A stretch of DNA of 64,000 nt. It comes from an uncultured bacterium (GTDB taxonomy: Bacteria > Patescibacteriota > Minisyncoccia > Phycocordibacterales > GWA1-40-21). The stretch covers positions 21,961-85,960 of the forward strand of contig CAIJNK010000008.1 in NCBI GenBank assembly GCA_903822075.1. Direction: 5' to 3'. The notes under the pieces are model-generated. The model had not been told where the DNA came from. It did no database searches and saw only the letters and a list, made by a program, of their open reading frames with translations. Shown here in pieces: positions 1,260-33,042 of this stretch (positions within the stretch are counted from its first letter, which is position 1; every line of letters begins with the position of its first letter). The translations under genes and the position numbers were made by a program.

Positions 1260-2021
1260 ATGCAAAATCCCCAAAAAACCCTTGAAAAGCTTGGTCTGAC
1301 CGAATCTGAGATCCGGGTATATTTGTCCTTGGTGTCTGGCGCCAAGAATATCCGGGATATCCTAAAAACTTCGCAACTTAAAAGACCCACCGCCTATTAC
1401 GCCATAAATTCCCTACGCAAGAGAGGCTTGGTTACCAAACCGGTCGAGGAAAATACCATGATTTTTACCTTGGAACCGTATGAAAGACTGGAAACTTTGG
1501 TCGAGGAAAAATCCCGCGACATAGTGGCTCTGTCAAAGGAGATAGATCAGCTCATCCCCTCCTTTACCCGGAAAAACGCCAATAAAGATCAAAAACCGCT
1601 GGTCTCTTTTTATGAAGGAATTGAAGCCGTCAAGACGATCGTGATGGAGACTTTGTATTGTAAAAGCAAACTGCACCTGTCCATTGCCCCGCAAGATAAC
1701 TTTTTTTGGCAAGTCGGGGCAGAATTTGTAAAAACTTATGTGGAAGAAAGGACCAGGCGAAATATTGAAACACGAAATCTTTGGGAAAAAAGAATTGATC
1801 CTGAAGTCTATGAGCAATATTATCGGGAATATTCCAATGTGCGCATCCTGCCGCCGGTAATGCTTGGCAAGTTTGCCACTACCATTTTCCTCTATGATGA
1901 TAAGACTCTTTATATTTCTTCCCTCACAAACGCCTACTGCGTCCTCATCCAGTCCCAGGAACACAAAGATATGATGACCGCCATTTTTGAAGGTCTCTGG
2001 TCTGCTTCGGAGAAGCATTAG
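1260..2021 (+). CDS. TrmB-like winged-helix transcriptional regulator (paralog 1)
   Basis: N-terminal HTH region LEKLGLTESEIRVYLSL; paralogous to the ORFs at 9744, 26538 and 38348. Confidence 0.6.
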   Translation: MQNPQKTLEKLGLTESEIRVYLSLVSGAKNIRDILKTSQLKRPTAYYAINSLRKRGLVTKPVEENTMIFTLEPYERLETLVEEKSRDIVALSKEIDQLIPSFTRKNANKDQKPLVSFYEGIEAVKTIVMETLYCKSKLHLSIAPQDNFFWQVGAEFVKTYVEERTRRNIETRNLWEKRIDPEVYEQYYREYSNVRILPPVMLGKFATTIFLYDDKTLYISSLTNAYCVLIQSQEHKDMMTAIFEGLWSASEKH

Positions 2022-2927: not shown

Positions 2928-3971
2928 CTATTTCCGGGGCATAGCTCTGACAATACTGAGGAGTTGTTTTCCTTCAGGCTTATTCAAATCAAACTTATCT
3001 GTCGGACTAGGAATATGCTTAATTCTTTCTCTGATCACTTGGCTATCATAACCCATACTTTTAACTATCCCGATGAGCTCCGCCGAGGCGTTATCATACA
3101 TTTCCAAAGCGCGGCGGTAATTGCCAATCAAGTTTTGATCATTACCCTCGGCTTTTTCCAACTCAATGAATTTTTCCAAGAGTTCGGCGAAAAAGATGAG
3201 TTGTGAGACAGTCTCTCGGATGAAATAAAATTTCAAATCGCAATTATCAAGTCTCTCCCTCAAGTTGGAATCCTCTGCCCCTTCTTCATAGGCGGTAAAA
3301 TCATCCACGGAATCTTCTACCAAATCTCCCGAGCAAGCTAAAATAACGTGTGGAATTTTGAAATCTCTAAGCTTGATGTCTTTTGGACCTTGCAGGGTAC
3401 TAATTTCAGTCTGAAAATATTTCATCTTGGGGATGCGCCCTTGGGACAAGAAAACAATCTGATCAAATATTTTTCCTAGTGCCTCTTTTTGACTCAAAGT
3501 AAAGTCAATGGAAAAGCCAACACAACGGATATCTCTTTCATCTCGGATTTCCCTATCCGGTAAAAGCTGCAAGGCTCCATCTATTTTATTGAAATAATCA
3601 TCATAAAGACTGCTGTTAATGACTTTCACCCGCTCTCCAAGCCAAGCCAGTTCCCTAATCAGTTGCGGTAACATTGACTCCACCAAAGCGGCCATGGCAC
3701 TCACTTCCCCATTATCAATTTTCTCAACAACTTGGGACTTTTCCGTAAAAGCTCTCCTTCTTTCTTCCACTCGCTGTAAATCCGCCTCCACTTCGGCTTT
3801 AGGAAATAAATTTACCACCCGGCCGGCCATTGGCACGGAGTAATCAATAAAGTCCTTTGGGTCAATTCTTCTATTTTCCGGGTTGCCTTCGACTTTCTCT
3901 ATCAAGTCAAATAATTCCCGACCCACGGCACTGAGAGACCCCCCTACAACTGATAGATTTTCTTTAGACAT
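2928..3971 (-). CDS. hypothetical protein
   Basis: 347-aa ORF with no recognisable motif; fits the local gene-dense layout. Confidence 0.5.
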   Translation of the reverse strand: MSKENLSVVGGSLSAVGRELFDLIEKVEGNPENRRIDPKDFIDYSVPMAGRVVNLFPKAEVEADLQRVEERRRAFTEKSQVVEKIDNGEVSAMAALVESMLPQLIRELAWLGERVKVINSSLYDDYFNKIDGALQLLPDREIRDERDIRCVGFSIDFTLSQKEALGKIFDQIVFLSQGRIPKMKYFQTEISTLQGPKDIKLRDFKIPHVILACSGDLVEDSVDDFTAYEEGAEDSNLRERLDNCDLKFYFIRETVSQLIFFAELLEKFIELEKAEGNDQNLIGNYRRALEMYDNASAELIGIVKSMGYDSQVIRERIKHIPSPTDKFDLNKPEGKQLLSIVRAMPRK

Positions 3972-5022: not shown

Positions 5023-5093
5023 TGCGGGTAGGGCGAATCGAACGCCCAACCAGAGTTTGGAAAACTCTCATTTTACCATTAAACTATACCCGC
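5023..5093 (-). tRNA. tRNA-Gly(UCC)
   Basis: Reverse-complement folds as a cloverleaf: acceptor GCGGGTA/TACCCGC, anticodon loop TTTCCAA, T-loop TTCGATT, discriminator A. Confidence 0.8.
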
Positions 5094-5146: not shown

Positions 5147-5455
5147 TTATTTCTCCGCCATGATTTTGACGATTTTTAGCACTTCGTCAAAGTTATCTCT
5201 TTTCTCCACTTTTTTTCGACGTTCAAAACCGCATTTCTCACAGCGAAAAGTGAGTAGATATTCACCCTTTTCCGTTTCAACCTTAATCGGTTTCATCATA
5301 CCCTGACAAGACGAAGATCGATCACCGGGGTTAACATCCACATGTTTACTCCACAAGCATTTGGGACAATGGTTAGTATAGCCGTCCCCCACCACCTTTT
5401 CTCCGCAGTGCTCGCAAATAAAATCCTCCACTTTTTTTTGAAACAGCTTAGTCAT
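5147..5455 (-). CDS. RNHCP-domain zinc-ribbon protein
   Basis: Motif GYTNHCPKCLWSKH plus CxxC pairs; 102 aa. Confidence 0.6.
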   Translation of the reverse strand: MTKLFQKKVEDFICEHCGEKVVGDGYTNHCPKCLWSKHVDVNPGDRSSSCQGMMKPIKVETEKGEYLLTFRCEKCGFERRKKVEKRDNFDEVLKIVKIMAEK

Positions 5456-5878: not shown

Positions 5879-5949
5879 CGGGGCGTGGTGTAACGGTAGC
5901 ATACATGCTTTGGGAGCATGCAGTTCGGGTTCAAATCCCGGCGCCCCGA
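5879..5949 (+). tRNA. tRNA-Pro(UGG)
   Basis: Acceptor CGGGGCG/CGCCCCG, anticodon stem CATGC/GCATG with loop TTTGGGA, T-loop TTCAAAT. Confidence 0.8.
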
Positions 5950-7625: not shown

Positions 7626-7696
7626 GCGGGCATGGTTTAGTGGTAGAACAGGTCCTTGCCAAGGATCAGACGGGAGTCCGATTCTCCCTGCCCGCA
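7626..7696 (+). tRNA. tRNA-Gly(GCC)
   Basis: Acceptor GCGGGCA/TGCCCGC, anticodon loop TTGCCAA, T-arm GGGAG-TCCGATT-CTCCC. Confidence 0.8.
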
Positions 7697-7725: not shown

Positions 7726-7797
7726 GCTCCCATGGTGAAATGGATATCACAACGGTCTTCGGAACCGTTATTGTGGGTTCGAGTCCTACTGGGGGCG
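7726..7797 (+). tRNA. tRNA-Arg(UCG)
   Basis: Acceptor GCTCCCA/TGGGGGC with one G·U pair, D-stem GTGA/TCAC, anticodon stem ACGGT/ACCGT with loop CTTCGGA, T-loop TTCGAGT. Confidence 0.75.
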
Positions 7798-9743: not shown

Positions 9744-10496
9744 ATGTTTGATAAATATTTAAAAGAAATTGGTTTAAGTGAAAAAGAAGCGGAGGTATAT
9801 TTAGCCCTTTTACAAGGTGACAGTTTTTCGATATTGGAAATTGCCAAAAAAACAAAAATTAATAGAACAACAATTTATCCGGTAATCAAGTCATTATCGG
9901 AGAAAGGCTTGGTCAGCGAAACAACCACCAACACTAAAGTTCACTATCAAGCGGAATCTCCGGACCGCTTGGAAACATACATTGAAAGACAAAAAATTCT
10001 TTTGGAAGAAAATTCCAAGAAAATGAAGGACATCATACCCCAATTAAAAAGTACCAGGCGAGAAATGGGCGAGAGGCCGGTTGTAAAATATTTTGAGGGT
10101 AAAGAGGGAGTAATCAGCATTAATGAGGATATTTTTAAGGATCCGGAGCCACAAGAAAAGGCCTATATGATTTATTCCAAAGATTTGGTTGATGATGTGC
10201 TAAAAAACGAAGAAACGGCTAAGTTTAAGCATAAAAGGATTGACAGAAAGATCAAAGGCTTCTCCGTATACACCTATTCAAAAGGGGAAATACCCAGTGA
10301 TGAAACATCAACTAGAGTAAAAATTGACGGTAGCAAATATCCGATAAACTGCGATATCTCTGTCTACAAAGATAAGACCATAATTACAACCTTGAATAAA
10401 AAACTGGCGGGGATATACATTCAAAGCACCGATTTGGCTGAAACCTTAAAAAGTTTAATCAGAGTGATTCACGACTTAACAAACAACAAACAATAG
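9744..10496 (+). CDS. TrmB-like transcriptional regulator (paralog 2)
   Basis: HTH LKEIGLSEKEAEVYLALL; a 20-bp perfect palindrome lies upstream at 9613-9632; borders GC-rich island 1. Confidence 0.6.
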   Translation: MFDKYLKEIGLSEKEAEVYLALLQGDSFSILEIAKKTKINRTTIYPVIKSLSEKGLVSETTTNTKVHYQAESPDRLETYIERQKILLEENSKKMKDIIPQLKSTRREMGERPVVKYFEGKEGVISINEDIFKDPEPQEKAYMIYSKDLVDDVLKNEETAKFKHKRIDRKIKGFSVYTYSKGEIPSDETSTRVKIDGSKYPINCDISVYKDKTIITTLNKKLAGIYIQSTDLAETLKSLIRVIHDLTNNKQ

Positions 10497-10523
10497 TGCG
10501 CTCGCTTAGAGATACAATAAGAA

Positions 10524-10563
10524 AGGGGGTTCAGGAGACGACGTGTCACCCTGAACCCCCTTT
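10524..10563 (+). terminator. terminator hairpin
   Basis: 11-bp stem gggggttcagg / cctgaaccccc followed by TTT. Confidence 0.5.
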
Positions 10564-11107
10564 AAGCGTTTTCACGCAGTTCGCTCTGAGACTCCCATGA
10601 CGAGAACCTCAAAAAAAACGAATTTTACCGACTTACGATCTATCTATGTTTAGTCAAACATACCAGTTCCTCTCTTTCTGTTTAGCTCATATAATTGAGC
10701 CCCGAGCACAGCCATCTGCGCCTCATCCCCCTTAACACGTAAGGGGGAGGCCAGCTTGGCTGTTTAATCGTGCATATTGCCTCCCAATTTGGTTGTTAAC
10801 TACTCGCTGTTCAAAAAGCCTCTGCCAGAAAGTATAGCAGATTGAAATTAATTGTCAAGTAATTTTGACGTTTTTAGCCATTTTATGCACCACTGTGTCA
10901 AAATATGCCCTATTTATAAGGTTATTTTAACAAATAGGGCAAAATTATATGTTTTTGACTAAAAACAGACTAAAAATACCACAAAACATGCTAAATATAT
11001 GTCAAAATTTAGTATATTATGTTTATACTCATTGACATTATATACTATATTTTAGCTTTATTTATAGGCCTTTTTTTGGTTTTTAAAAAAGAAAATGTCA
11101 TTCTTAC

Positions 11108-11135
11108 TTGACAAAAATGTGAATATGAGTATACT
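11108..11135 (+). promoter_or_regulatory. sigma70-like promoter TTGACA-16-TATACT (island 1)
   Basis: Perfect -35 TTGACA at 11108-11113 and -10 TATACT at 11130-11135; an AGGAGG RBS lies downstream. Confidence 0.4.
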
Positions 11136-11176
11136 TACATCAGAAAGCAAAAAGTTCTCTCAAATAGGAGGTGGGT

Positions 11177-11434
11177 ATGGTTTTCAAAAAAGTCTACTTT
11201 GTGTGTATACATTGTGGGCACAAAAACTCACCACACCAAAGTCCGAGGAAGAGTTACCGGTTGGTAATTGCCAATCCACGGATTCAGTGCAGCGCGTGCA
11301 GGAGAGATTTCCAAGCAGATCTTGAAGATCTCTACCGAAAAAGTCCGCTGGCTTGCAGGATAAGGGAAGAACTGGAAGGAGAACAACATGCACTGGCTCA
11401 GACTACGACAAGAGAGAACAGCACTCCGGGTTGA
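11177..11434 (+). CDS. small zinc-ribbon protein (hypothetical)
   Basis: AGGAGG 5 nt upstream of the ATG; CIHCGH…CSACRR CxxC pairs. Confidence 0.45.
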   Translation: MVFKKVYFVCIHCGHKNSPHQSPRKSYRLVIANPRIQCSACRRDFQADLEDLYRKSPLACRIREELEGEQHALAQTTTRENSTPG

Positions 11435-11576
11435 ACGAATGGCCCTCGGAGAAGAACATAGAAAAAGCTGGTTATGGAGATTGCTCGAATACATCTTCGA
11501 GTAAGACCAGCGAAAGGGTGGAGTAAACCATCCTGAAACTGAAACAAACAACGGCGGGTAGATGTTCTACCCGTCT

Positions 11577-11641
11577 ATCCGTCGCAAGATATGTATCTTG
11601 CCTGATGAGTCCTTCACTTAGACGTTCAGGACGAAACGGAA
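11577..11641 (+). ncRNA. hammerhead ribozyme motif HHR1 (type III)
   Basis: GUC cleavage triplet; stem I hairpin gcaagata-tgt-atcttgc; CUGAUGA; stem II gtcct…aggac; GAAAC; a 5-bp stem III (tccgt/acgga) pairs with the upstream flank. Confidence 0.8.
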
Positions 11642-11666
11642 AAGATCTTTGAGAAAATGAAAATAA

Positions 11667-11717
11667 CACCTGCGCCGGATTGTTCTGAAATTATTTCAGA
11701 TTGATCCGGTGCAGGTG
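11667..11717 (+). other. long near-perfect hairpin A in HHR1-downstream leader
   Basis: Arms cacctgcgccggat / atccggtgcaggtg with one G·U pair, plus an inner tctgaaat/atttcaga stem. Confidence 0.5.
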
Positions 11718-12068
11718 TGCGCAGACACCCTAGCATGTATGTGCGGTCCCTAAACTCATCAACTTGACATCCTAGGTTGGGTTGGGTATAGGGCTACCGA
11801 CAATTCTTTCACCTCAGGAAAAGTTTTCCTGTTGCCGAAGGAGGGCATGACCAAACTTCGTTTACCGACGAAGCGCCTTCTGGAAAGAATACGGGGTGTG
11901 TAACCGACAGAAGGAGCAAATTGCCTCTTTCTAAACGGGCGGTGCCGTTCGCTTACACATTTCATGGATATAGGGGCCTTTACTCCGGTCAGGGGTCAAG
12001 GTTAGTAAAGTCCAGCTGCGCAATTTTTCAAACATTAACCATAGACAAAACTCAACGAAAGGGAATAA

Positions 12069-12365
12069 ATGAGTACCAGTTATGGTCACGCAACAGTCGC
12101 TTTCCCGGGATTTCCACCAGTCACGGGAAACACGGTAAATGACCGGGTCCTCTTTGCGAATTATCACTGGGGGTATAAAGTTGAATCCTTTCTTCCAGTG
12201 AGAACTCTAAAGTTCGCCGACGGTACGAAACGCCGCCTCTCCAAAAAAGAGCGCAGCCGCTTACTCACACTTTCTCGAAAGTGGAACAAGCACGGCCAGT
12301 GGGATTATACCCAAAATAAACGCCACCGGCCGTTTCGAACCATCGAAGAGGTGAACGACTACTAG
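12069..12365 (+). CDS. hypothetical protein (weakly supported)
   Basis: 98-aa ORF between HHR1 and HHR2; weak SD. Confidence 0.3.
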   Translation: MSTSYGHATVAFPGFPPVTGNTVNDRVLFANYHWGYKVESFLPVRTLKFADGTKRRLSKKERSRLLTLSRKWNKHGQWDYTQNKRHRPFRTIEEVNDY

Positions 12366-12527
12366 CTTCCGGGAGATCTGAGAGACAGATCGCCATGAAC
12401 CGGACGAGGTAGAGAAAACTACCTTTGGAACAGAAGCGACTACGGGCACATCACTCTACATAATGTCCCGAAAGTAAAATCCGTGAAAAAAATCACGTTA
12501 ATCATCCGAATACGCAAGGTATTCGGG

Positions 12528-12578
12528 TCTGTCTCACGATGTGTGTCGTGACTGATGAGCTCAAAAGAGCGAAACAGA
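12528..12578 (+). ncRNA. hammerhead ribozyme motif HHR2
   Basis: GUC triplet; stem I tcacga-tgtgtg-tcgtga; CUGAUGA; stem II gctc-aaaa-gagc; GAAAC; 5-bp stem III; preceded by the 8-bp hairpin ccgaatac/gtattcgg. Confidence 0.8.
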
Positions 12579-12602
12579 AAAGATCTTTGAGAATAAATAT
12601 TT

Positions 12603-12665
12603 GTCCTGCGTCTAGATTAGAAATTATTACCTGATTTTTAATCTAGACGCAGGACTCTTGCAGGG
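12603..12665 (+). other. 17-bp perfect-stem hairpin B downstream of HHR2
   Basis: gtcctgcgtctagatta … taatctagacgcaggac with a 29-nt AU-rich loop. Confidence 0.55.
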
Positions 12666-12909
12666 GTTGGACGTCTTTTGTTCACCGGTTTTCGCGAGCC
12701 GGTAACCGAATAGTATAAGGTTCGGAGCAGAGATCAGTCTCTGATAGGGGCAATGGGTCACCCTCAACCTGCACGACATAGAGATGCCGATAGTTCAAGC
12801 CTGATGTGAAGATTGTGTGGCTCCATTGTGGGCCCCAGCTTTACAAAAACGGTTTGATCATCTCTCGAGAGGGTAGCATTATGTCTGACCAACATTCTGC
12901 CCCCTCTCG

Positions 12910-12977
12910 TTTCTGTACGGGAGTATGTTCTCTCGCTGATGAGTCCTTCGCTTAGGCGTTCAGGATGAAACAGAAAA
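12910..12977 (+). ncRNA. hammerhead ribozyme motif HHR3
   Basis: GUA triplet; stem I cgggag-tatgtt-ctctcg; CUGAUGA; stem II gtcc…ggat; GAAAC; 7-bp stem III; the 12912-12986 stretch is identical to the HHR4 copy. Confidence 0.8.
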
Positions 12978-13002
12978 GATCTTTCAAACAAAGGGAGCTA
13001 AT

Positions 13003-13584
13003 ATGTTTTCAAGCAAAATCGGCAAAGGCAAGTTGTCAGTGAAAAAAGAATTCGCTGTCACCCTGCCCAAGGAGGCCAAGAAGTGGGATGACTACCGGTC
13101 GGAGATCGTGGAAGCTTTCCATACCTTGGGTGGAGTGCGGGGGATCATGGGCGTGACCGGTCTGCGTCAGACTCAGGCGTATTTACTGGCGGCGAAATTT
13201 GGATTGATTATCGAAAAAGCCGTCCGAAGGAACAGCCAAGTTTACGCCAGACGACGGATGAACAACCTCGAGCACTTAAGAAATGTTTGGGGCTGGCGGC
13301 CGGGGGATGACACAGTAACTTTGAAAAATGGGCGACACTATGCCGCTAACCGCAGTTTTATGGCTGGCAGATCGCATTTCAAAGAAGGTGAAGTCTTCGT
13401 CCAGTACTCTCTGCCTACAGGGAAAGTCCGCGAGTATTTGCTGGCTCACGGAGTTAAATGGTGGATTGCCGGAGTGGAAATGGTTCCAGTCGATGCGGTC
13501 AAAGGAGAGGGGGCCTCTCTTTCCATGAAACTGGAGACTTCGCATTTTGCCAAGGTTGATTGTCAACCCATAAAACAATCTTGA
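13003..13584 (+). CDS. hypothetical protein (island 1)
   Basis: 193 aa; SD AAAGGGAG; lies immediately downstream of HHR3; GC-rich codon usage. Confidence 0.55.
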   Translation: MFSSKIGKGKLSVKKEFAVTLPKEAKKWDDYRSEIVEAFHTLGGVRGIMGVTGLRQTQAYLLAAKFGLIIEKAVRRNSQVYARRRMNNLEHLRNVWGWRPGDDTVTLKNGRHYAANRSFMAGRSHFKEGEVFVQYSLPTGKVREYLLAHGVKWWIAGVEMVPVDAVKGEGASLSMKLETSHFAKVDCQPIKQS

Positions 13585-13611
13585 GTTCCAGATACTCAAA
13601 AATAAAATCTG

Positions 13612-13675
13612 TCTGTACGGGAGTATGTTCTCTCGCTGATGAGTCCTTCGCTTAGGCGTTCAGGATGAAACAGAA
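13612..13675 (+). ncRNA. hammerhead ribozyme motif HHR4
   Basis: Exact repeat of the HHR3 core (13612-13686 matches 12912-12986). Confidence 0.8.
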
Positions 13676-13723
13676 AAGATCTTTCGGGAAAATTAGAAAC
13701 AAAACAGCAGAAGGAGAGAAGCT

Positions 13724-14014
13724 ATGCCTAAGATTAAGTTCTCGTCGAATTTCTTGCAGGAACGCCGGATCCGTCTTGGCTTTGAACCCTGCGAGGTAGC
13801 GAGGCTGGTGGGAGTCAAGCTCGATACTTACCGACAGTGGGAATGCCGCGGGGAAATCCCCGAGAAACATCTGCCACAGTTGGCCGCCGCGCTTCAGATT
13901 CCGGAGAACGAACTGAAGGCCGAGAAGGTGGCAGTGCTGGTGGAGGCGATGTTGGGAATCCCTCGGCAGGAAACCCACGGCTTCATCAACCGAATGTTGC
14001 GCGGAAATGCGTAG
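13724..14014 (+). CDS. HTH (XRE-like) domain protein
   Basis: SD AAGGAGAG; LGFEPCEVARLVGVKLDTYRQWE helix-turn-helix; 96 aa. Confidence 0.5.
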   Translation: MPKIKFSSNFLQERRIRLGFEPCEVARLVGVKLDTYRQWECRGEIPEKHLPQLAAALQIPENELKAEKVAVLVEAMLGIPRQETHGFINRMLRGNA

Positions 14015-14026
14015 CCGGATAACACC

Positions 14027-14053
14027 CCCCGAGCAGAAATGCTCGGGGTTTTC
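14027..14053 (+). terminator. rho-independent terminator closing island 1
   Basis: Stem ccccgagc / gctcgggg followed by TTTT. Confidence 0.55.
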
Positions 14054-14090
14054 TATACGAAAAAAGTTTGGAGTGTGCTAGACTTGAAAG

Positions 14091-26537: not shown

Positions 26538-27269
26538 TTAGCCTAATTTCTCATAGAAAGTTTGGAATATTTGCTTTTGGAACTCGGCGATCCTCTTACT
26601 CTCAATAATCATGACCGTTTCCGTATTGTAATCGATAAAAGCGACTTTATTACCATAGATTATCTCAGTAACATTATGTTCAAAAGGACCAAAATCGTTC
26701 GGCATAATTTTTGCAAAGCGATCCAGGCTTGGTCTTTTGTGCACTGCCGTCTGGGCGTTAGTAATCACTTCTCGCTGTAATTTCTTTTCGTCACGCATTT
26801 GACGATAAATCCTGGGCACATATTTATCTTTTTTTTCATTACCGTCCTTGTTTGAACTGTAACGGTAAAAGACATCCCCTTTTTTAAGACTGCGCACCAC
26901 ATCATCAAAAATTCTTTTAGTTCCATCTCTTCCTTCAAGAAATCTGATCTTCGGTTTTTTCTCACTGCTATTATAGGCGTCCTCCATGTCCGGCAGGATT
27001 TCAAAAAAATCAATTCGTAAATCGTCAAAAAGAGTTTCTAATCGATTGGGTGGTTCAGCGCCATAAACTACACTTTTTATTTTTTGCGTTTTAGTGACTA
27101 GTTTTTTTTCCATGAGGGAGGGTAGGGCCTTGTAAACCAGGGGACGATGGATTGAAGTTTTTTCGGAAATTTGGGAGATATTGGAGGTTCCCATCTCCAG
27201 CAAAGCCAGGTAAATGGCACTTTCATGCTTAGTCAGGCCTATTTTCTCCAAAATCTTGTTTTTATCCAT
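26538..27269 (-). CDS. TrmB-like transcriptional regulator (paralog 3)
   Basis: HTH LEKIGLTKHESAIYLALL; divergently oriented from island 2. Confidence 0.6.
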   Translation of the reverse strand: MDKNKILEKIGLTKHESAIYLALLEMGTSNISQISEKTSIHRPLVYKALPSLMEKKLVTKTQKIKSVVYGAEPPNRLETLFDDLRIDFFEILPDMEDAYNSSEKKPKIRFLEGRDGTKRIFDDVVRSLKKGDVFYRYSSNKDGNEKKDKYVPRIYRQMRDEKKLQREVITNAQTAVHKRPSLDRFAKIMPNDFGPFEHNVTEIIYGNKVAFIDYNTETVMIIESKRIAEFQKQIFQTFYEKLG

Positions 27270-27569
27270 ATATTTAGTTATTTTTGCTGTAATTTTAGCT
27301 TACATAGAGTATAGATAAATATCTTCAAAAAATCAAGTATTTAAGGTATTTAATATACCTTTTCTTGATTATCTATTCTTAATGTAATAATTAGTTACAT
27401 TTTTAATCAGCAAGGATTGTTGATACATAAGGGTTATTTGGGATTTAGCCAATAAACATTACATGACATTGAGCAAATTCAAGCAAGAGTTCTCCCTTTA
27501 ATATATGCTGTTCCGAGACCAAGAACGGCACTTCGAGAAGATAAACCAACCAAACAGGAGGGAACGAGG

Positions 27570-27869
27570 ATGAACAGCCCCATCATGAGTCGATACCAGG
27601 CTTGGCGTGAGGACAGAAACGCTCGAATTGCTTTCCTGATGCTAAGGAAACAGTGGGCCAGAAACTTACTAAGGGAGGCGGCACTGACCGAACCCGGACA
27701 GGAGACTGAAGCCGAGTTCCGGGGAGCAGTCTACCGGGTCTGGATTGGCCCGCGAGGCGGAGTCAGAATCCACCAAACAAGAGTACTGCCAAAACCCCTG
27801 CCGCCGGCAACGCTGCCAAAAACTGAAAATCTGCCCATGCTCGCCGCCTTTCAAAGGGTTGGGCTATAA
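27570..27869 (+). CDS. hypothetical protein (first gene of island 2)
   Basis: SD ACAGGAGGGAACGAGG; GC-rich; 99 aa. Confidence 0.45.
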   Translation: MNSPIMSRYQAWREDRNARIAFLMLRKQWARNLLREAALTEPGQETEAEFRGAVYRVWIGPRGGVRIHQTRVLPKPLPPATLPKTENLPMLAAFQRVGL

Positions 27870-27898
27870 ACAACGGCGGGGATTAGGAACCCCCGCCT

Positions 27899-27960
27899 TC
27901 CGTCGCCAAGTGAAACTTGGCCTGATGAGTCCTTCACTTAGACGTTCAGGACGAAACGGA
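27899..27960 (+). ncRNA. hammerhead ribozyme motif HHR5
   Basis: GUC; stem I gccaag-tgaaa-cttggc; CUGAUGA; stem II as in HHR1; GAAAC; 5-bp stem III; preceded by the hairpin ggcgggg/ccccgcc. Confidence 0.8.
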
Positions 27961-27999
27961 TAAAGGTCGAAAGATTATCAAAATAACTAAAAATAAATA

Positions 28000-28371
28000 A
28001 TGCTCAAAAAAGTAAAAACATTGAGAACGCCGGCGTCGCATGCGGAATACGAACGCTACCAAAAAACGCCAAAGTTCCCGGCTTGTTACATCTGCACGGC
28101 CAAGACGATAAAAACTTATGAGAAATGGAAGATGATTGAAAACGAGTTTCCTTACAACGAAATAGCCACGAAAAACGACATGATTGTCCCGATCAGGCAC
28201 ACCACTGAAAACGACTTGACGGAGGAAGAACTAAGGGAGTTTACAAAGATAAAAGAAGACATCAACGACAAATACGACATGATTCTGGAAAATACCCACA
28301 AACAAAAATCCATCCCCGGGCACTTCCACTTGCACCTCTTACAAATAAAAGAGCGGGAAATTGAAATTTAA
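28000..28371 (+). CDS. HIT-family (histidine triad)-like protein
   Basis: HFHLHLL histidine-triad motif; N-terminal CYIC. Confidence 0.5.
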   Translation: MLKKVKTLRTPASHAEYERYQKTPKFPACYICTAKTIKTYEKWKMIENEFPYNEIATKNDMIVPIRHTTENDLTEEELREFTKIKEDINDKYDMILENTHKQKSIPGHFHLHLLQIKEREIEI

Positions 28372-28400
28372 CGGCCGAGAGGCTGTTTTTTAGACCCAAA

Positions 28401-28450
28401 CTGTCTCGGAATGTGTATTCCGGCTGATGATTCCGAAAGGATGAAACAGG
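28401..28450 (+). ncRNA. hammerhead-like motif HHR6 (variant, U·U at 10.1/11.1)
   Basis: GUC; stem I cggaat-gtgt-attccg; CUGAUGA; stem II ttcc-gaaa-ggat; GAAAC; 4-bp stem III. The conserved G10.1-C11.1 pair is replaced by U/U, so it may be inactive. Confidence 0.5.
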
Positions 28451-28478
28451 TAAGTTCATTAACAACAGGAGATATAAA

Positions 28479-28700
28479 ATGTCGTGCCCAGTATGCGGAA
28501 GAGTCTTATGTGATCACTCGCCGGATGAACGTGGACAATCCTACGAGGGGATGATGGCAGATATGGATAATGATACACGCCGAATACAAGGCGGGGGTGG
28601 CTTATTGGGGCCAGCAACACCATTTCATCCAAACAGCTTCAATCCTCGTAGAGATTTACCTCCAGGGGAACGACCAGCTGACTGGGGGTTACGAGATTGA
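28479..28700 (+). CDS. small Cys-containing hypothetical protein
   Basis: SD AGGAG 9 nt upstream; MSCPVCG…C. Confidence 0.35.
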   Translation: MSCPVCGRVLCDHSPDERGQSYEGMMADMDNDTRRIQGGGGLLGPATPFHPNSFNPRRDLPPGERPADWGLRD

Positions 28701-28732
28701 CAATACACCCCGCATCTTAATTGATGCGGGTA

Positions 28733-28782
28733 CTGTCCGAGAGTGTGTACTCTCGCTGATGAGTCCAAAAGGACGAAACGGA
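28733..28782 (+). ncRNA. hammerhead ribozyme motif HHR7
   Basis: GUC; stem I cgagagt-gtgt-actctcg; CUGAUGA; stem II gtcc-aaaa-ggac; GAAAC; preceded by the hairpin cccgcatc/gatgcggg. Confidence 0.8.
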
Positions 28783-28798
28783 AAAGTTCTTTGAAAAA

Positions 28799-28859
28799 GT
28801 TGCCAAGAGATTTGAGAACTTGATTTGTGATTAATTGATTTTTCAAATCTCTTGGCAAC
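28799..28859 (+). other. 17-bp perfect-stem hairpin C in 5' leader of REC-domain gene
   Basis: gttgccaagagatttga … tcaaatctcttggcaac with a 27-nt AU-rich loop. Confidence 0.55.
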
Positions 28860-28892
28860 AATAAACAAAAAGAAAGGAAACGAGGTAGAGGT

Positions 28893-30332
28893 ATGAATAA
28901 GACAAGCGGCATTGAGATCGTGAAGGGTACGCTCCATTTTGAACATGACGGAAACGGTTTCGTCTGTCGAGAGCTCAGGGAACTGCCGGTACTGTTTGGG
29001 GAGACTCATGGCACCGATAAAGTGGATGAGGCAATCAAGCAATACTTGGCGGGTCTGCGAGGAATTTTCGAACCGAGGTACGGCTCCAGGACGGAGCGGG
29101 ACGCGGTTCCGGAAGTCGAGCGGGTGCGTTTGGGTGGTTTGGCCTTCGATGAAATCGTGGGCTCGATCGACACCAAAGATCTCTCGCTCTTCCAGAAGCT
29201 CATGTTCTGGCTGTCGGACTGGTGGTATTACAATGTGGCTCTTCGTCAGAAGTGCAACTTTGATTACAACAAATTCGACTTCTACGGAATAAGCTCGAAA
29301 ATCATCGGCGAATTCGTGCTGGCTTTGCTGCCGGAACAGATTCAGTCGGTGCTCGGGAAGATGCAGGTAGCCGGAACCGCAGTGGGATTTGGTCACTTCG
29401 CCATTTTGTTCATTGATGGTGTTCATGGCCGGTCGGGAACGGTGCGCCGGATTGTGACGGATACGCAGCTCATTGAGTTGCATGACGTCAGCGGGTACAC
29501 CTACCTCGACATCACCAAGGAAGGGAAGCCGGTCGCAAGGTCGGTGACCAGCCGCGGTGGTGAGCGAGCGTTCTTCGACGGGGTTCGACTCATGTCGCAT
29601 GACATGTTTCAGACCTGCGCGCCCAAGACGGTCGTGATCAATGGTGGATACAAGGTGAACTCCACCCAATGCACGATTATCAATGGGATTCTGTTCCCGG
29701 TGATCGAGAGCAATGATGCCGTGGCGAAAACGACCGGCGCCTTTATGGGGATGGTGGATTTCACCAATACCCAGGCCCTCGAGTCTTATGCCTTGTCGGA
29801 AGCGACGGGGACGCGACTCAAGGTTGATGGGCCAAGGGTGTTTCTGGATAAAAAAGAGCTCAAACCGATCGGGGTTTTCCAACCCAGCTCGGTGCATCTA
29901 CTGGATTCAGGGTTTGCCCTCTACGACTGGTCGGACTTTCACGAGGTGATGAACTGTCGGTTCGATTCCGTTCTGGTCATTGATGACAAGAAGGATTGGA
30001 TCGATCAATTTCGGCAAGCCTTTGGCTCCGAGATCACTCACCTCAAAGAGGTCCAGACCAGTAGCCGTGAAGAAGCGCTTGGGGCGATTGTCAACGGAAA
30101 GCCAGAAGTGGTGATCCTCGACATGCACCTGTCCGACTCCGAGGGTTTTGAAGGCCTTTGGATTGCGAACCAGTTGTTCGCCAACGCATTCGGTGGTCGA
30201 ATCGTGATTGCGAGCAGTTACCCGGATGAACAATTGAAAGCCATGACTACTCTAATCAAGGGTAAGGTCTGGGCTCCAGGCAAGAACATCGACCGTATTC
30301 GTAAACTGCTCGGCAGTACGAATTGGCGATAA
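28893..30332 (+). CDS. protein with unknown N-terminal domain and C-terminal CheY-like receiver domain
   Basis: C-terminus VLVIDDKKD…VVILDMHLSDSEG…GKVWAPGK fits a response-regulator receiver domain; SD GAGGTAGAGG. Confidence 0.6.
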   Translation: MNKTSGIEIVKGTLHFEHDGNGFVCRELRELPVLFGETHGTDKVDEAIKQYLAGLRGIFEPRYGSRTERDAVPEVERVRLGGLAFDEIVGSIDTKDLSLFQKLMFWLSDWWYYNVALRQKCNFDYNKFDFYGISSKIIGEFVLALLPEQIQSVLGKMQVAGTAVGFGHFAILFIDGVHGRSGTVRRIVTDTQLIELHDVSGYTYLDITKEGKPVARSVTSRGGERAFFDGVRLMSHDMFQTCAPKTVVINGGYKVNSTQCTIINGILFPVIESNDAVAKTTGAFMGMVDFTNTQALESYALSEATGTRLKVDGPRVFLDKKELKPIGVFQPSSVHLLDSGFALYDWSDFHEVMNCRFDSVLVIDDKKDWIDQFRQAFGSEITHLKEVQTSSREEALGAIVNGKPEVVILDMHLSDSEGFEGLWIANQLFANAFGGRIVIASSYPDEQLKAMTTLIKGKVWAPGKNIDRIRKLLGSTNWR

Positions 30333-30403
30333 CGGCGACACTTGCGCCTATAAGTTGTAAGACTTATTAAAACTTACGACCTGCATCTTGATCGATGCAG
30401 GTT

Positions 30404-30452
30404 CTGTCCGAGAGTGTGTACTCTCGCTGATGAGTCCAAAAGGACGAAACAG
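30404..30452 (+). ncRNA. hammerhead ribozyme motif HHR8
   Basis: Same core as HHR7 with a different stem III (tctg/caga versus HHR7 tctg/cgga); preceded by the hairpin cctgcatc/gatgcagg. Confidence 0.8.
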
Positions 30453-30502
30453 TAGTTCTTTGAAACAAACAAGTCCCGACAGGGACGGAAAGGTGGAAAC
30501 AG

Positions 30503-30949
30503 ATGAAGAAGGCAGCATTTCTCTCGTACAATTCGATAGCGGGTTTTAGTGCCGGATGGATCGACGGCACGACAGACTGCAAGGCTCTGATTATTCCTTG
30601 TTCGCATGGGTCATCAGCCGCCCCGAAAGTTCGCAGCGAAGCTCAGTGTCATGATGTCACGAATGAGATCACTCGACTGTGGGCCCAGCTCCGAGAACAC
30701 GTAAAGGAGTTGGATTACATCGTCGTGTATGTTGGAAGTGATGGGTCGGAAAATGCCATCACACTAGCTTCTGAGCTACCTTCCGAAAAGGTAACCTTCG
30801 TGATGTGTGACTGCCGTCTTGGTACAAAGGATGAGCTTCTCAGAAGAGCTGGCCACACAAATGCTCGGCAAATTATGTGTGAATGTCGTGGGTTAGAGAC
30901 CATGGGCCGGCTCTGCAAAAGATTCCTGGATACTGGCATGATCGGCTAA
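30503..30949 (+). CDS. hypothetical Cys-rich protein
   Basis: 148 aa; SD AAAGGTGG. Confidence 0.45.
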   Translation: MKKAAFLSYNSIAGFSAGWIDGTTDCKALIIPCSHGSSAAPKVRSEAQCHDVTNEITRLWAQLREHVKELDYIVVYVGSDGSENAITLASELPSEKVTFVMCDCRLGTKDELLRRAGHTNARQIMCECRGLETMGRLCKRFLDTGMIG

Positions 30950-30990
30950 CGGAGGCATGGTTAGAGGTTCCATTACAAAAACCTCACACT

Positions 30991-31036
30991 AGCAAAGTGT
31001 GTACTTTCGCTGATAAGTCCAGAAGTATGAAACAGA
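30991..31036 (+). ncRNA. degenerate hammerhead relic HHR9
   Basis: CUGAUAAG (G8 changed to A), stem II disrupted (gtcc-agaa-gtat), no U at 16.1; still aligned with HHR7/8 and followed by the same leader. Confidence 0.4.
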
Positions 31037-31068
31037 AAAGTTCATAAACAACAAGATATGGAGATTAA

Positions 31069-31638
31069 ATGTCTAGTATATTGATGAAGTATGAATCCAG
31101 TTTCCGTGACGGTGAGAGCCTTGAGAATTTCGAGCTCTGTCTTCTACCTGGTGAAGTATGGCTTACCACTGAGCCGGAAATGATGACTTGGCTTGAAGCA
31201 ATAGAGATTGCTGGAGCTAAATCAAACTTACGCCTGCCACATTACGCTGATCTAATAAGGGCGGTAGAAAGTTTGTCGAAAGATAGCCGGCTTGGCGAGC
31301 AGTTCTCTCCACTTGAAGATGGAGAGTTTTGGACAATAGGTTCGGAGGGATATGAAGCAAATCAGCCATTCGCCTGTTGTGTTCAAGCCACACACAGTAG
31401 CTATGACTCACACAGCCTAAAGACTTGCCTAAAATGGGTAAGGTTCATCAAACGAGGTAAGGCAGAAACATCATTTGAAATCCAAAAGAAAAAGGAGTTG
31501 AGAGAAAGATGGATGCATGAGGTTAATCTTCACCGGAAAGTATCCGATATTCTTGATTTAGATCAAGTTGAAATTGGTACCATACATGGACAATTTCAAC
31601 TTGAATCAAAATCGCAAATTCGCAAAAGGCTGCAGTAA
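31069..31638 (+). CDS. hypothetical protein
   Basis: 189 aa; SD GGAG upstream of the ATG. Confidence 0.45.
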   Translation: MSSILMKYESSFRDGESLENFELCLLPGEVWLTTEPEMMTWLEAIEIAGAKSNLRLPHYADLIRAVESLSKDSRLGEQFSPLEDGEFWTIGSEGYEANQPFACCVQATHSSYDSHSLKTCLKWVRFIKRGKAETSFEIQKKKELRERWMHEVNLHRKVSDILDLDQVEIGTIHGQFQLESKSQIRKRLQ

Positions 31639-31711
31639 TGTCAATGCGGCGCAGAGAAAGATAAAAAGTGGAGACAACCACCTATCAAAAACCCTGGGGA
31701 ATTTACCCAGG

Positions 31712-31764
31712 TTCTGTCCGGGAGTGTGTACTCTCGCTGATGAGTCCAAAAGGACGAAACGGAA
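31712..31764 (+). ncRNA. hammerhead ribozyme motif HHR10
   Basis: GUC; stem I cgggagt-gtgt-actctcg with a G·U pair; CUGAUGA; gtcc-aaaa-ggac; GAAAC; 6-bp stem III; preceded by the hairpin cctggg/cccagg. Confidence 0.8.
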
Positions 31765-31795
31765 AAAGGTCGAAAAATTATTAAAGGAGAAAGTG

Positions 31796-32950
31796 ATGAC
31801 AACAAAAAAAGAGAAAACAATTCTGTGCGACGCCAAGGCTTTCTGCTTTGGGCCCATATCGAAACTCTTAACGATTAGCGAGAGACTCTTTGAAAAGTAT
31901 CGAATTGTGTTTCTGGTCTCCCGGACAAGCAAGATGCTTTCCGCGCATGCTTGCGCCGATGAGATAGTGGAATGTGATACGGAAAACATCACCGATCTAT
32001 TGGCACACGAGGCCTTGTTTAAGTCGGCCGACCTGTTTGTAAACATTATGAATCCGCTCTCGGCACGTTTTGCGGCCGAAAGAGGATTACCGATGGTCCA
32101 GATAGACAGCTTGTTCTGGATGTGGGAACAGATAGCGGAAGAAATTCTCAGCTCAGAGATTTATTTCATTCAGGACTTTGAAGGAGTCGCTGAGCAAATG
32201 AAAAAATTCTCTGGCCGGATAAAGAATCCGGTTCTGGTCGGTCCAATCATAAAAGAGGTTCCTAATGGCGTACCGAAGAAGAACAAACTGCTCATTAATT
32301 TGGGCGGGATGGAATCGGCTTCGATAAAGGTGGGGGTTAATACGGAGTACCCTTACGTAATAATGCGACTCATCAATGATTTGCTGGCAAAAGGCCACGA
32401 CTTTGCTGAGATTGTCTGTGCGGGTAACCGAGACATTCTGGAAGAGATGAAAAGGAGGACACCGAACGGGGCTATTCATTACCAGTTCTTTGAACATAAT
32501 GATTTTCTCCGGCAGATAGCGGAATCAAGGTTGATCATATCGTCTCCGGGACTGACAACCGCCTTCGAGGTTTTTAATTCGGGGACACCGGTGTTCTTCA
32601 TACCGCCCCAGAATTACAGCCAATATTGGAATCTTGATAGTTTTATCAAGAACGGTGTGGCGGAAGAAGCAATAAACTGGAATCACCTCTACTCGGAGGT
32701 AAGCATTCTGAAAAACGAGGAACAAAAGAAAGGGATTGAAAAAGTACTTCAATGTACCCGCCAATTCGAAAAGGATCCAAAAGCTTGGTCCAAAGTGGAG
32801 GGAGGTGTAAAACACTTTCTCACTCTCCCAACAGATGAATTGGAGGGGGTGGGGAAGCGTCAGAAGAAGTACTTCGAAACGCTCGGTGGTAACGGTACAG
32901 AGGTCATAGTCAAAGGTATTATAGACTTACTCGAGAAGAGGAAAGTATAA
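31796..32950 (+). CDS. GT-B fold glycosyltransferase-like protein (MurG/GT28-like C-terminal domain)
   Basis: The start is placed at the ATG after SD AAAGGAGA, because the longer ORF from 31568 runs through HHR10 and the upstream gene. C-terminal LIISSPGLTTAFEVFNSGTPVFFIPP resembles the nucleotide-sugar-binding half of MurG-like enzymes. Confidence 0.5.
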   Translation: MTTKKEKTILCDAKAFCFGPISKLLTISERLFEKYRIVFLVSRTSKMLSAHACADEIVECDTENITDLLAHEALFKSADLFVNIMNPLSARFAAERGLPMVQIDSLFWMWEQIAEEILSSEIYFIQDFEGVAEQMKKFSGRIKNPVLVGPIIKEVPNGVPKKNKLLINLGGMESASIKVGVNTEYPYVIMRLINDLLAKGHDFAEIVCAGNRDILEEMKRRTPNGAIHYQFFEHNDFLRQIAESRLIISSPGLTTAFEVFNSGTPVFFIPPQNYSQYWNLDSFIKNGVAEEAINWNHLYSEVSILKNEEQKKGIEKVLQCTRQFEKDPKAWSKVEGGVKHFLTLPTDELEGVGKRQKKYFETLGGNGTEVIVKGIIDLLEKRKV

Positions 32951-33042
32951 TATACTTGACTTTTAGGCCTAGACGTGCTACCATTGTAAACAGAACAGAG
33001 GGTATCACTTGCCCTGATTTAGAGCCGTAAAATCGGCCACAA

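Follow-up and report, generated by a model that had tools for sequence, protein, structure and literature searches.

A candidate structured non-coding RNA between two predicted hammerhead ribozymes in a gene array of Paceibacteria

What would two self-cleaving ribozymes release from a transcript if the stretch between them codes for no protein? This question is raised by positions 12579-12909 of the window, by which we mean the whole stretch of DNA that was analysed, 64 kb in length. A preliminary description had taken the segment for a non-coding RNA that is cut out by the hammerhead ribozymes on its two sides. Here we refer to it as RNA B.

RNA B is one element of array 1, a series that comes after a gene for a TrmB-family regulator (9744-10496, plus strand). 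The order in the array is ORF87, HHR1, leader A with ORF98, HHR2, RNA B (12534-12917), HHR3, ORF193, HHR4 and ORF96. The features of the array are:

11108-11135, plus strand: putative promoter-like site that heads the array, TTGACA-16-TATACT, agreeing with the consensus at 11 of 12 positions
11578-11640, plus strand: HHR1, type III hammerhead, predicted to cut after 11583
11641-12068, plus strand: leader A of ORF98, structured, with 20 pairs that carry compensatory changes among 3 sequences
12069-12365, plus strand: ORF98, a small, basic, conserved protein
12528-12578, plus strand: HHR2, type III hammerhead, predicted to cut after 12533, with triplet GUC and core CUGAUGA...GAAAC
12579-12602, plus strand: post-ribozyme linker, AAAGATCTTTGAG..., present 3' of most hammerheads of the family
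12910-12976, plus strand: HHR3, type III hammerhead, predicted to cut after 12917, with triplet GUA, an extended stem II and G10.1-U11.1
13003-13584, plus strand: ORF193, the downstream cassette, with one homologue (57% identity) that likewise has a hammerhead upstream
13612-13674, plus strand: HHR4, type III hammerhead, predicted to cut after 13617, part of a 74-nt exact repeat of HHR3
13724-14014, plus strand: ORF96, an Xre-type HTH protein, conserved, the last gene of the array
14027-14058, plus strand: terminator-like hairpin (14027-14048) and T run, the end of the array

We infer that array 1 is co-transcribed. The site near 11108-11135 is the probable start of a polycistronic transcript, and a single transcript from this promoter (about 11108) to the terminator (about 14050) would carry all cassettes of the array. 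Two near-consensus promoters, at 10831-10874 and 11092-11135, are divergently oriented. The two arms of a 23-nt inverted repeat (TTGTCAAG...CTTGACAA) overlap one promoter each, and the repeat could be a putative operator pair for the adjacent TrmB regulator. Also upstream of array 1 are four tRNA genes, at 5023-5093 (minus strand), 5879-5949, 7626-7696 and 7726-7797 (plus strand), with no encoded 3' CCA.

The first point to settle is whether the ribozymes are genuine. HHR2 reads UCUGUC^UCACGA-UGUGUG-UCGUGA CUGAUGA GCUC-AAAA-GAGC GAAAC AGA and HHR3 reads UUUCUGUA^CGGGAG...CUCUCG CUGAUGA GUCC...GGAU GAAAC AGAAA, with the predicted cut at the caret. The pattern CTGATGA-N8-38-GAAAC has nine matches in the 64-kb window, all of them on the plus strand, while 0.37 are expected from shuffles. 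Against the Rfam model Hammerhead_3 (RF00008), HHR1 scores 39.6 bits (E=2.8e-6), HHR3 and HHR4 score 30.8 (E=8.5e-4 for HHR3) and HHR2, whose register the model partly mis-assigns, scores 23.8. As all these values are below the gathering score of 48.5, the fold was tested on 41 distinct hammerheads from the window and related contigs.

The fold has three helices around the core, of which stems I and II are capped and stem III is open. In this alignment 97.1% of the cells are paired and 12 of 15 pairs show compensatory changes, while slid registers of the 41 sequences, used as control, pair at 33-47%. Stem I is paired in 100% of the cells, although it was never a selection criterion. Eight related loci contain 29 further Hammerhead_3 matches of 35-49.5 bits, only one of which passes the gathering score; their E-values reach down to 6e-8, which indicates a divergent subgroup rather than noise. 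From these comparisons we conclude that the array hammerheads are a real, divergent subgroup of type III. Cores, triplets and covariation among the 41 relatives uphold the earlier view that the segment is flanked by hammerheads, with predicted cuts behind 12533 and 12917.

The flanking ribozymes differ in stem II. HHR2 combines the core CUGAUGA/GAAA with a G10.1-C11.1 closing pair of stem II, whereas in HHR3 and HHR4 this pair is G-U instead of the usual G-C, which may slow the cleavage by HHR3. The G-U variant recurs in locus L075. Across the arrays the stem III sequences CUGU/ACAG are nearly universal, and the linker AAAAGATCTTT or AAAGTTCTTT comes after most of the ribozymes. HHR3 and HHR4 form, together with their linkers, an exact direct repeat of 74 nt (12912-12985 and 13612-13685) on either side of ORF193. 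The repeat points to a recent duplication or gene conversion, and it is a possible substrate for deletion of the ORF193 cassette.

Next we consider whether the segment could code for a protein. The plus-strand ORFs that touch 12534-12917 are only two, one of 31 aa (12539-12634) and one of 49 aa (12806-12955, with a GTG start and running into HHR3), in agreement with the earlier observation that no plus-strand ORF of at least 60 aa lies between HHR2 and HHR3. The 49-aa ORF is not conserved. Nearly every plus frame of each homologue holds 4-10 stop codons, and the longest internal ORFs of the homologues, 19-37 aa, differ in position between them. When the homologues are translated in six frames all frames are equally similar, as one would expect of conservation at the nucleotide level. 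In the six-sequence comparison no conserved ORF with a coding-type substitution pattern was found in RNA B.

This sets RNA B apart from the other cassettes. Among 57 distinct hammerhead-to-hammerhead segments of at most 3 kb, taken from all fetched loci, the median longest ORF is 112 aa; it is shorter than 45 aa in only five segments, and all five belong to the RNA B family. The survey therefore shows one gene per cassette to be the rule of the arrays, with the RNA B family as the sole exception. The preliminary description had regarded the preceding segment, 11584-12533, as similar, with only a weak 98-aa ORF after a structured leader of about 430 nt. The leader is indeed there, but ORF98 is conserved, with homologues of 41-53% identity in L011 and L044-L053, and the segment is an mRNA.

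Leader A is itself of some interest. Together with L011:1326-1876 (minus strand) and L049:5109-5587 it makes up a second conserved structured RNA of about 430 nt, with a P1-like hairpin of 24 bp, a closing stem GCGCAG...CUGCGC and a conserved core GCCGAAGGARGG...CCUUCUGGAAAGAA. It may regulate the basic protein ORF98 in cis. Its P1-like hairpin and closing stem echo the front end of RNA B.

If RNA B is a structured RNA its fold should be found in relatives. Besides the window (12581-12917) we found five other distinct homologues, all in metagenome and MAG contigs of Candidatus Paceibacterota, and a truncated remnant:

L031:3109-3475, minus strand: RNA B homologue, from the GTDB scan with the conserved junction
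L075:2673-3039, minus strand: RNA B homologue
L001:3013-3364, minus strand: RNA B homologue; L040 is identical
L023:6150-6493, minus strand: RNA B homologue; L012 is identical
L014:796-about 1120, plus strand: RNA B homologue
L068, 9390-9040, minus strand: truncated remnant, outside the six distinct sequences

The GTDB scan with the conserved junction of RNA B gave six matches, of which five are chance and one, L031, is real. Common to the homologues are the linker, the 23-bp hairpin P1, the junction UCU, P2, the 3' domain and P9. In the window these elements are:

12603-12655, plus strand: P1 (hairpin B), an inverted repeat of 22-23 bp, 12603-12625 with 12633-12655, base GUCCUGCG/CGCAGGAC; 6 of 23 pairs compensatory
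12659-12773, plus strand: P2, closing stem, UGCAGGGGUU with AACCUGCA, enclosing the variable domain P2a-P6
12669-12683, plus strand: P2a, inside the P2 domain
12684-12703, plus strand: P3, loop UUUUCGCGAG, covarying among the window, L031, L075 and L001
12706-12725, plus strand: P4, covarying among the same four sequences
12728-12743, plus strand: P5, inside the P2 domain
12746-12764, plus strand: P6, loop UGGG/GGUCA at 12754-12760
12780-12865, plus strand: 3' domain (P7, internal loop GCCGAUAG and P8)
12780-12785 (AGAGAU) with 12860-12865 (AUCUCU), plus strand: P7, nearly invariant, the weakest helix in single-sequence folds
12795-12801 with 12851-12857, plus strand: P8, with variable interior; 7 of 7 pairs compensatory
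12866-12909, plus strand: P9, the 3' hairpin next to HHR3, loop ACCA/UGACC at 12885-12891; 5 of 7 pairs compensatory

Hairpin B is thus present as first described. Across the homologues the consensus of P2 is UGCAG(GNG)UU with AAC(C)UGCA, and P7 is GGAGAU/AUCUCC, enclosing the internal loop CCGAUAG. L023 has a reduced form, and L014 a different form, of the domain of small hairpins inside P2 (P2a, P3 with loop UUUCGCGAG, P4, P5 and P6).

When the full RNA B is aligned with MAFFT several of the covarying helices are misplaced. For this reason we counted pairs on a block alignment, in which the strands were assigned by hand and their order was verified in each sequence. This curated alignment of six sequences, all from a narrow clade of Paceibacteria, contains 66 pairs; 97.6% of the cells are paired and 27 pairs show changes on both sides, counts that hand curation biases towards the proposed structure. 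None of 500 shuffled controls reaches any of these measures, and slid registers pair at 34-47%. Given the bias of a hand-made alignment each sequence was also folded alone, and these independent minimum free energy folds recover 278 of the 328 proposed pairs (85%).

The signal is not evenly distributed over the structure. P8 is wholly different between sequences (UCAAGCC/GGUUUGA, CCAUUAU/AUAAUGG, CUUGUUG/CAACAAG), while P2 and most of P7 are uninformative for covariation because they are invariant. About two dozen cells of the alignment are G-U on the plus strand, and since the complement of each would be an A.C mismatch the structure is specific for the plus strand. The RNA that double cleavage would release, 12534-12917 or 384 nt, has a folding z of -6.9 against shuffles; for 12664-12909, without hairpin B, z is -2.7.

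In Rfam 15 the body at 12579-12909 has only sub-threshold matches, to miRNA hairpins and folP, on P1 and far below gathering, and no homologue has a body match at E<=0.001. RNA B is apparently a candidate new structured RNA family of about 340 nt in CPR bacteria. The conservation and covariation among relatives that the preliminary description had proposed to look for are found, in the architecture common to six distinct homologues and its 27 compensatory pairs, and the conserved fold together with the absence of a conserved frame supports its reading of 12579-12909 as a candidate non-coding RNA.

A tertiary contact is also suggested. The loop of P9 (12885-12891) probably contacts the loop of P6 (12754-12760) by the candidate loop-loop pairing UGGY/RCCA, whose fourth pair is U-A in three sequences, C-G in two and G.A in the window; as an alternative the window offers the shifted pairing GGUCA/UGACC.

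Further, the P3 loop UUU(U)CGCGAG, seen in the window (12684-12703), L031, L075 and L001, holds the 6-nt palindrome UCGCGA, by which RNA B could dimerise as a kissing loop. Two other candidates were rejected. A 21-nt repeat (11199-11219/12813-12833), considered as a decayed copy of a zinc ribbon, falls in the variable part inside P8 and has no counterpart in the homologues, and we take it to be chance. Likewise, a pairing of the 3' strand of P9 with stem I of HHR3 (12904-12923, flagged as terminator-like) is not conserved in the homologues and is taken as a coincidence.

The chromosomal setting of RNA B is conserved although its neighbours are not. Starting from homologues of ORF96 and of the second TrmB we found a TrmB-array-HTH locus in the chromosomes of Candidatus Paceibacterota, including 9744-14060 and 26538-33000 of the window, L040, L044-L051, L060, L064 and L066-L076; the homologues of TrmB2 form more than 120 clusters at 53-100% identity. 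A metagenome scan with hammerhead and linker gave 28 contigs, many of them with 2-8 hammerheads on the same strand. The cassette content of these loci varies even between close relatives. Arrays next to HTH homologues of 58-66% identity have no RNA B, and the search for ORF193 homologues gave one related locus, with a hammerhead and without RNA B.

RNA B belongs to the array on the TrmB1 side in the window, L001 and L023, and to the one on the TrmB2 side in L031 and L075. In five of six homologues a hammerhead stands between RNA B and the next ORF, and the neighbouring ORFs vary by locus. In some relatives the flanking ribozymes are altered: the hammerhead upstream of RNA B has the core CCGAUGA, not CUGAUGA, in L031 (about 1528-1576, minus strand), and CCGACGA upstream of the remnant in L068 (about 9430-9380, minus strand). 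These U4-to-C hammerheads may be inactive, which would leave RNA B fused to the upstream cassette. In L014 the hammerhead 3' of RNA B is missing, and ATTTTGG runs directly into the linker-like AAAGTTCTAAG (1100-1320); from the junction it looks as if precisely the hammerhead unit had been deleted. All that L068 retains is P6, a hairpin like P9 and, of P1, the 3' half; this remnant is joined to the leader of a HIT-like gene.

Taking these comparisons together, the reading that we prefer, with a probability of roughly 0.7, is that 12534-12917 is a non-coding cassette of a hammerhead-punctuated operon, which would release a structured RNA that may act in trans. Cuts at HHR2 and HHR3 would free a 384-nt RNA with a 5'-OH and, just after P9, a 2',3'-cyclic phosphate. 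Its 5' end would be the folded body of HHR2, followed by the linker and then the conserved body of about 330 nt. Such an RNA would be made in fixed stoichiometry with the small proteins of the array, and its likeliest role would be that of a stable trans-acting structured RNA, for instance a protein-binding scaffold or a regulator. The two hammerheads then appear as makers of the ends of a conserved structured RNA and not of an mRNA.

The comparison shows ribozyme motifs on both sides, a lack of coding potential, conservation with covariation, and the cassette context, whereas the cleavage in vivo, the stability and the trans action of RNA B are what we infer; the trans-acting role is a guess, because no protein family was found to co-occur with RNA B across the arrays. 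Some observations count against this reading: HHR2 and HHR3 score below threshold, HHR3 has the G-U pair, the cores are changed in L031 and L068, L014 has no downstream hammerhead, and the evidence is wholly comparative, from six sequences of a single clade.

The preferred reading can be extended to a circular RNA, in which the excised 384 nt are closed by hammerhead-catalysed or RtcB-type ligation. The 3' tail UUUCUGUA>p would pair with ACAGAAA of the HHR2 body, and the ends would lie in a reconstituted hammerhead, which is retrozyme-like except that no RNA or DNA replication step is involved. In minimum free energy folds the linear RNA and its permuted junction do form a three-way hammerhead junction, with a stem III of 7 bp made from the two ends, and given the near-universal CUGU/ACAG stem III every cassette could circularise. 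However, a common stem III may only reflect the common descent of the ribozymes, and P9 resembles the 3' hairpins found ahead of other array hammerheads, which fits linear products. Further, circular or spliced products of clustered bacterial hammerheads have been sought and none were found (Perreault et al., PMC3088659).

That RNA B is ligated into a circle, possibly self-associating through the UCGCGA loop of P3, therefore appears unlikely to us. If true, bacteria would have a circular structured RNA that is encoded in the chromosome and made by ribozymes, and the TrmB-linked arrays of Paceibacteria would serve as a system of cassettes for circular or end-protected RNAs.

Rather than being released, RNA B might be a cis-acting 5' leader of ORF193, with an HHR3 that is slow or regulated through G10.1-U11.1. 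As part of a fused mRNA the leader would control how this is translated or how stable it is, or else modulate the cleavage by which the two are separated. The non-canonical closing pair and low Rfam score of HHR3 would fit such a role, as would the lack of a hammerhead after RNA B in L014, the fusion of the truncated relative in L068 to the leader of the HIT-like gene, and the sister element leader A, which is a true leader of ORF98. However, L031, L075, L001 and L023 have a fully canonical hammerhead 3' of RNA B, the downstream genes are unrelated between loci, and the gene that comes after HHR4, the exact copy of HHR3, is an unrelated one. Variation of the closing pair is also not peculiar to this site, as the G-U variant recurs in L075 and a U-U variant at 28424 of the window is shared with L045. 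We regard a leader function as quite improbable.

The conserved feature could also act as DNA, with the inverted repeats and hammerhead units as integron-like recombination sites and the RNA as incidental. The cassette does stand in the TrmB1-side array of some loci and in the TrmB2-side array of others, the deletion-like junction of L014 is exactly at the hammerhead unit, and HHR3 equals HHR4 over 74 nt. Recombination at the DNA level may explain the movement of cassettes; such shuffling is compatible with an RNA function and is no replacement for it. The many strand-specific G-U pairs, the location of all hammerheads on the coding strand and the lack of an integrase linked to the arrays make it very improbable that DNA is the level at which the feature acts.

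Finally, a decayed protein-coding cassette or a micro-peptide gene can hardly be what is conserved here: a start codon in P9 is in frame with CAA-CAY in most homologues (e.g. MSDQH / VSNQH) and the 5' strand of P9 is Shine-Dalgarno-like in four of six, but substitutions over the 10 shared codons are 6, 5 and 5 at positions 1, 2 and 3, with no third-position bias, the Shine-Dalgarno-like strand is lost in L001 and L014, the frame enters the cleavage site without a stop codon in three sequences, all six frames are equally similar, and compensatory changes in pairs are not expected of a decaying ORF. The P9 micro-ORF was rejected for its lack of third-position bias and of a conserved Shine-Dalgarno-like strand.

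How does RNA B compare with known systems? In bacterial prophages clustered hammerheads flank genes (Perreault et al. 2011, PMC3088659), and clustered hammerheads of other bacteria cut polycistronic RNAs of about 2 kb in vitro and in E. coli (PMC3088659). A review still calls the function of the thousands of bacterial hammerheads unresolved (PMC6765202). As in those clusters, hammerheads of one strand would here punctuate a multi-gene transcript (the plus strand has four at 11578-13674 and another five or six at 27899-31764), processing into single-gene RNAs is proposed, and the cassette genes vary. Unlike the prophage clusters, the arrays are at the chromosomal TrmB-array-HTH locus without recognisable phage genes, there are up to 8 ribozymes per locus, all of type III, and one cassette is a structured RNA.

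Retrozymes and viroid-like circular RNAs (Cervera et al. 2016, PMC4918200) share with RNA B a non-coding structured segment between type III hammerheads whose ends can re-form a ribozyme. RNA B differs in being bacterial and within an operon, with one copy in the window and one per related locus; its flanking HHR2 and HHR3 are different and not identical LTR repeats, its circularity is hypothetical, and no PBS/PPT sequence, reverse transcriptase or rolling-circle logic was noticed. Synthetic designs in which flanking ribozymes give exact ends to guide RNAs or recombinant RNA (PMC3401473) are also similar. RNA B would be their natural counterpart; it is conserved, and the 5' ribozyme would stay on the product, as the cut of a type III hammerhead falls close to the 5' end of the ribozyme itself.

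OLE, ROOL, GOLLD and raiA are large structured bacterial non-coding RNAs whose function is not established. RNA B is like them in having many helices, several hundred nucleotides, covariation, variable peripheral domains and a candidate long-range loop contact, while it is smaller, has ends predicted to be set by ribozymes, and is so far confined to a narrow clade of Paceibacteria.

In the literature searched we found neither hammerheads described from CPR bacteria nor a naturally occurring non-coding RNA of a bacterium that is bounded by hammerheads. Hammerheads that flank genes are thus known, and what appears to be new is a ribozyme-processed operon with a structured-RNA cassette. RNA B adds a candidate family of non-coding RNA to CPR bacteria, a group in which RNA biology has hardly been studied, and the widespread TrmB-array-HTH locus with up to eight ribozymes is a setting in which to study ribozyme function, cassette turnover and possible circularisation.

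The searches gave no phage signal. Array proteins compared with Pfam and PHROGs gave weak matches only (zinc ribbon, HTH and receiver domain), and in the locus no PHROG beyond generic HTH was matched. Scans of IMG/VR and blastn against phage and plasmid collections gave no matches, and the pattern of hammerheads with a long stem II is absent from the IMG/VR and GTDB genomes that were scanned.

The second array of the window adjoins a divergent TrmB gene (26538-27269, minus strand):

27480-33000, plus strand: array 2, with five or six hammerheads at 27899-31764 that are predicted to cut after 27904, about 28405, 28737, 30408 and 31718

The cassettes of this array code for a HIT-like protein, a zinc-ribbon peptide, a glycosyltransferase-like protein and a protein of 479 aa whose C-terminal part is a receiver domain. 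The hammerhead at 28401-28450 is a variant with U at 10.1 (CUGAUGAUUCC...GGAUGAAAC), and the same variant is found in L045 at about 3575-3600. A degenerate hammerhead at about 30985-31040 (CUGAUAAG), in which stem II is broken, is probably dead. L023 also has, within a hammerhead array, a sub-threshold match to the type-P1 twister (5173-5238, minus strand; 36.7 bits against a gathering score of 67.2, E=2e-4), and a second class of ribozyme may thus take part in the same arrays.
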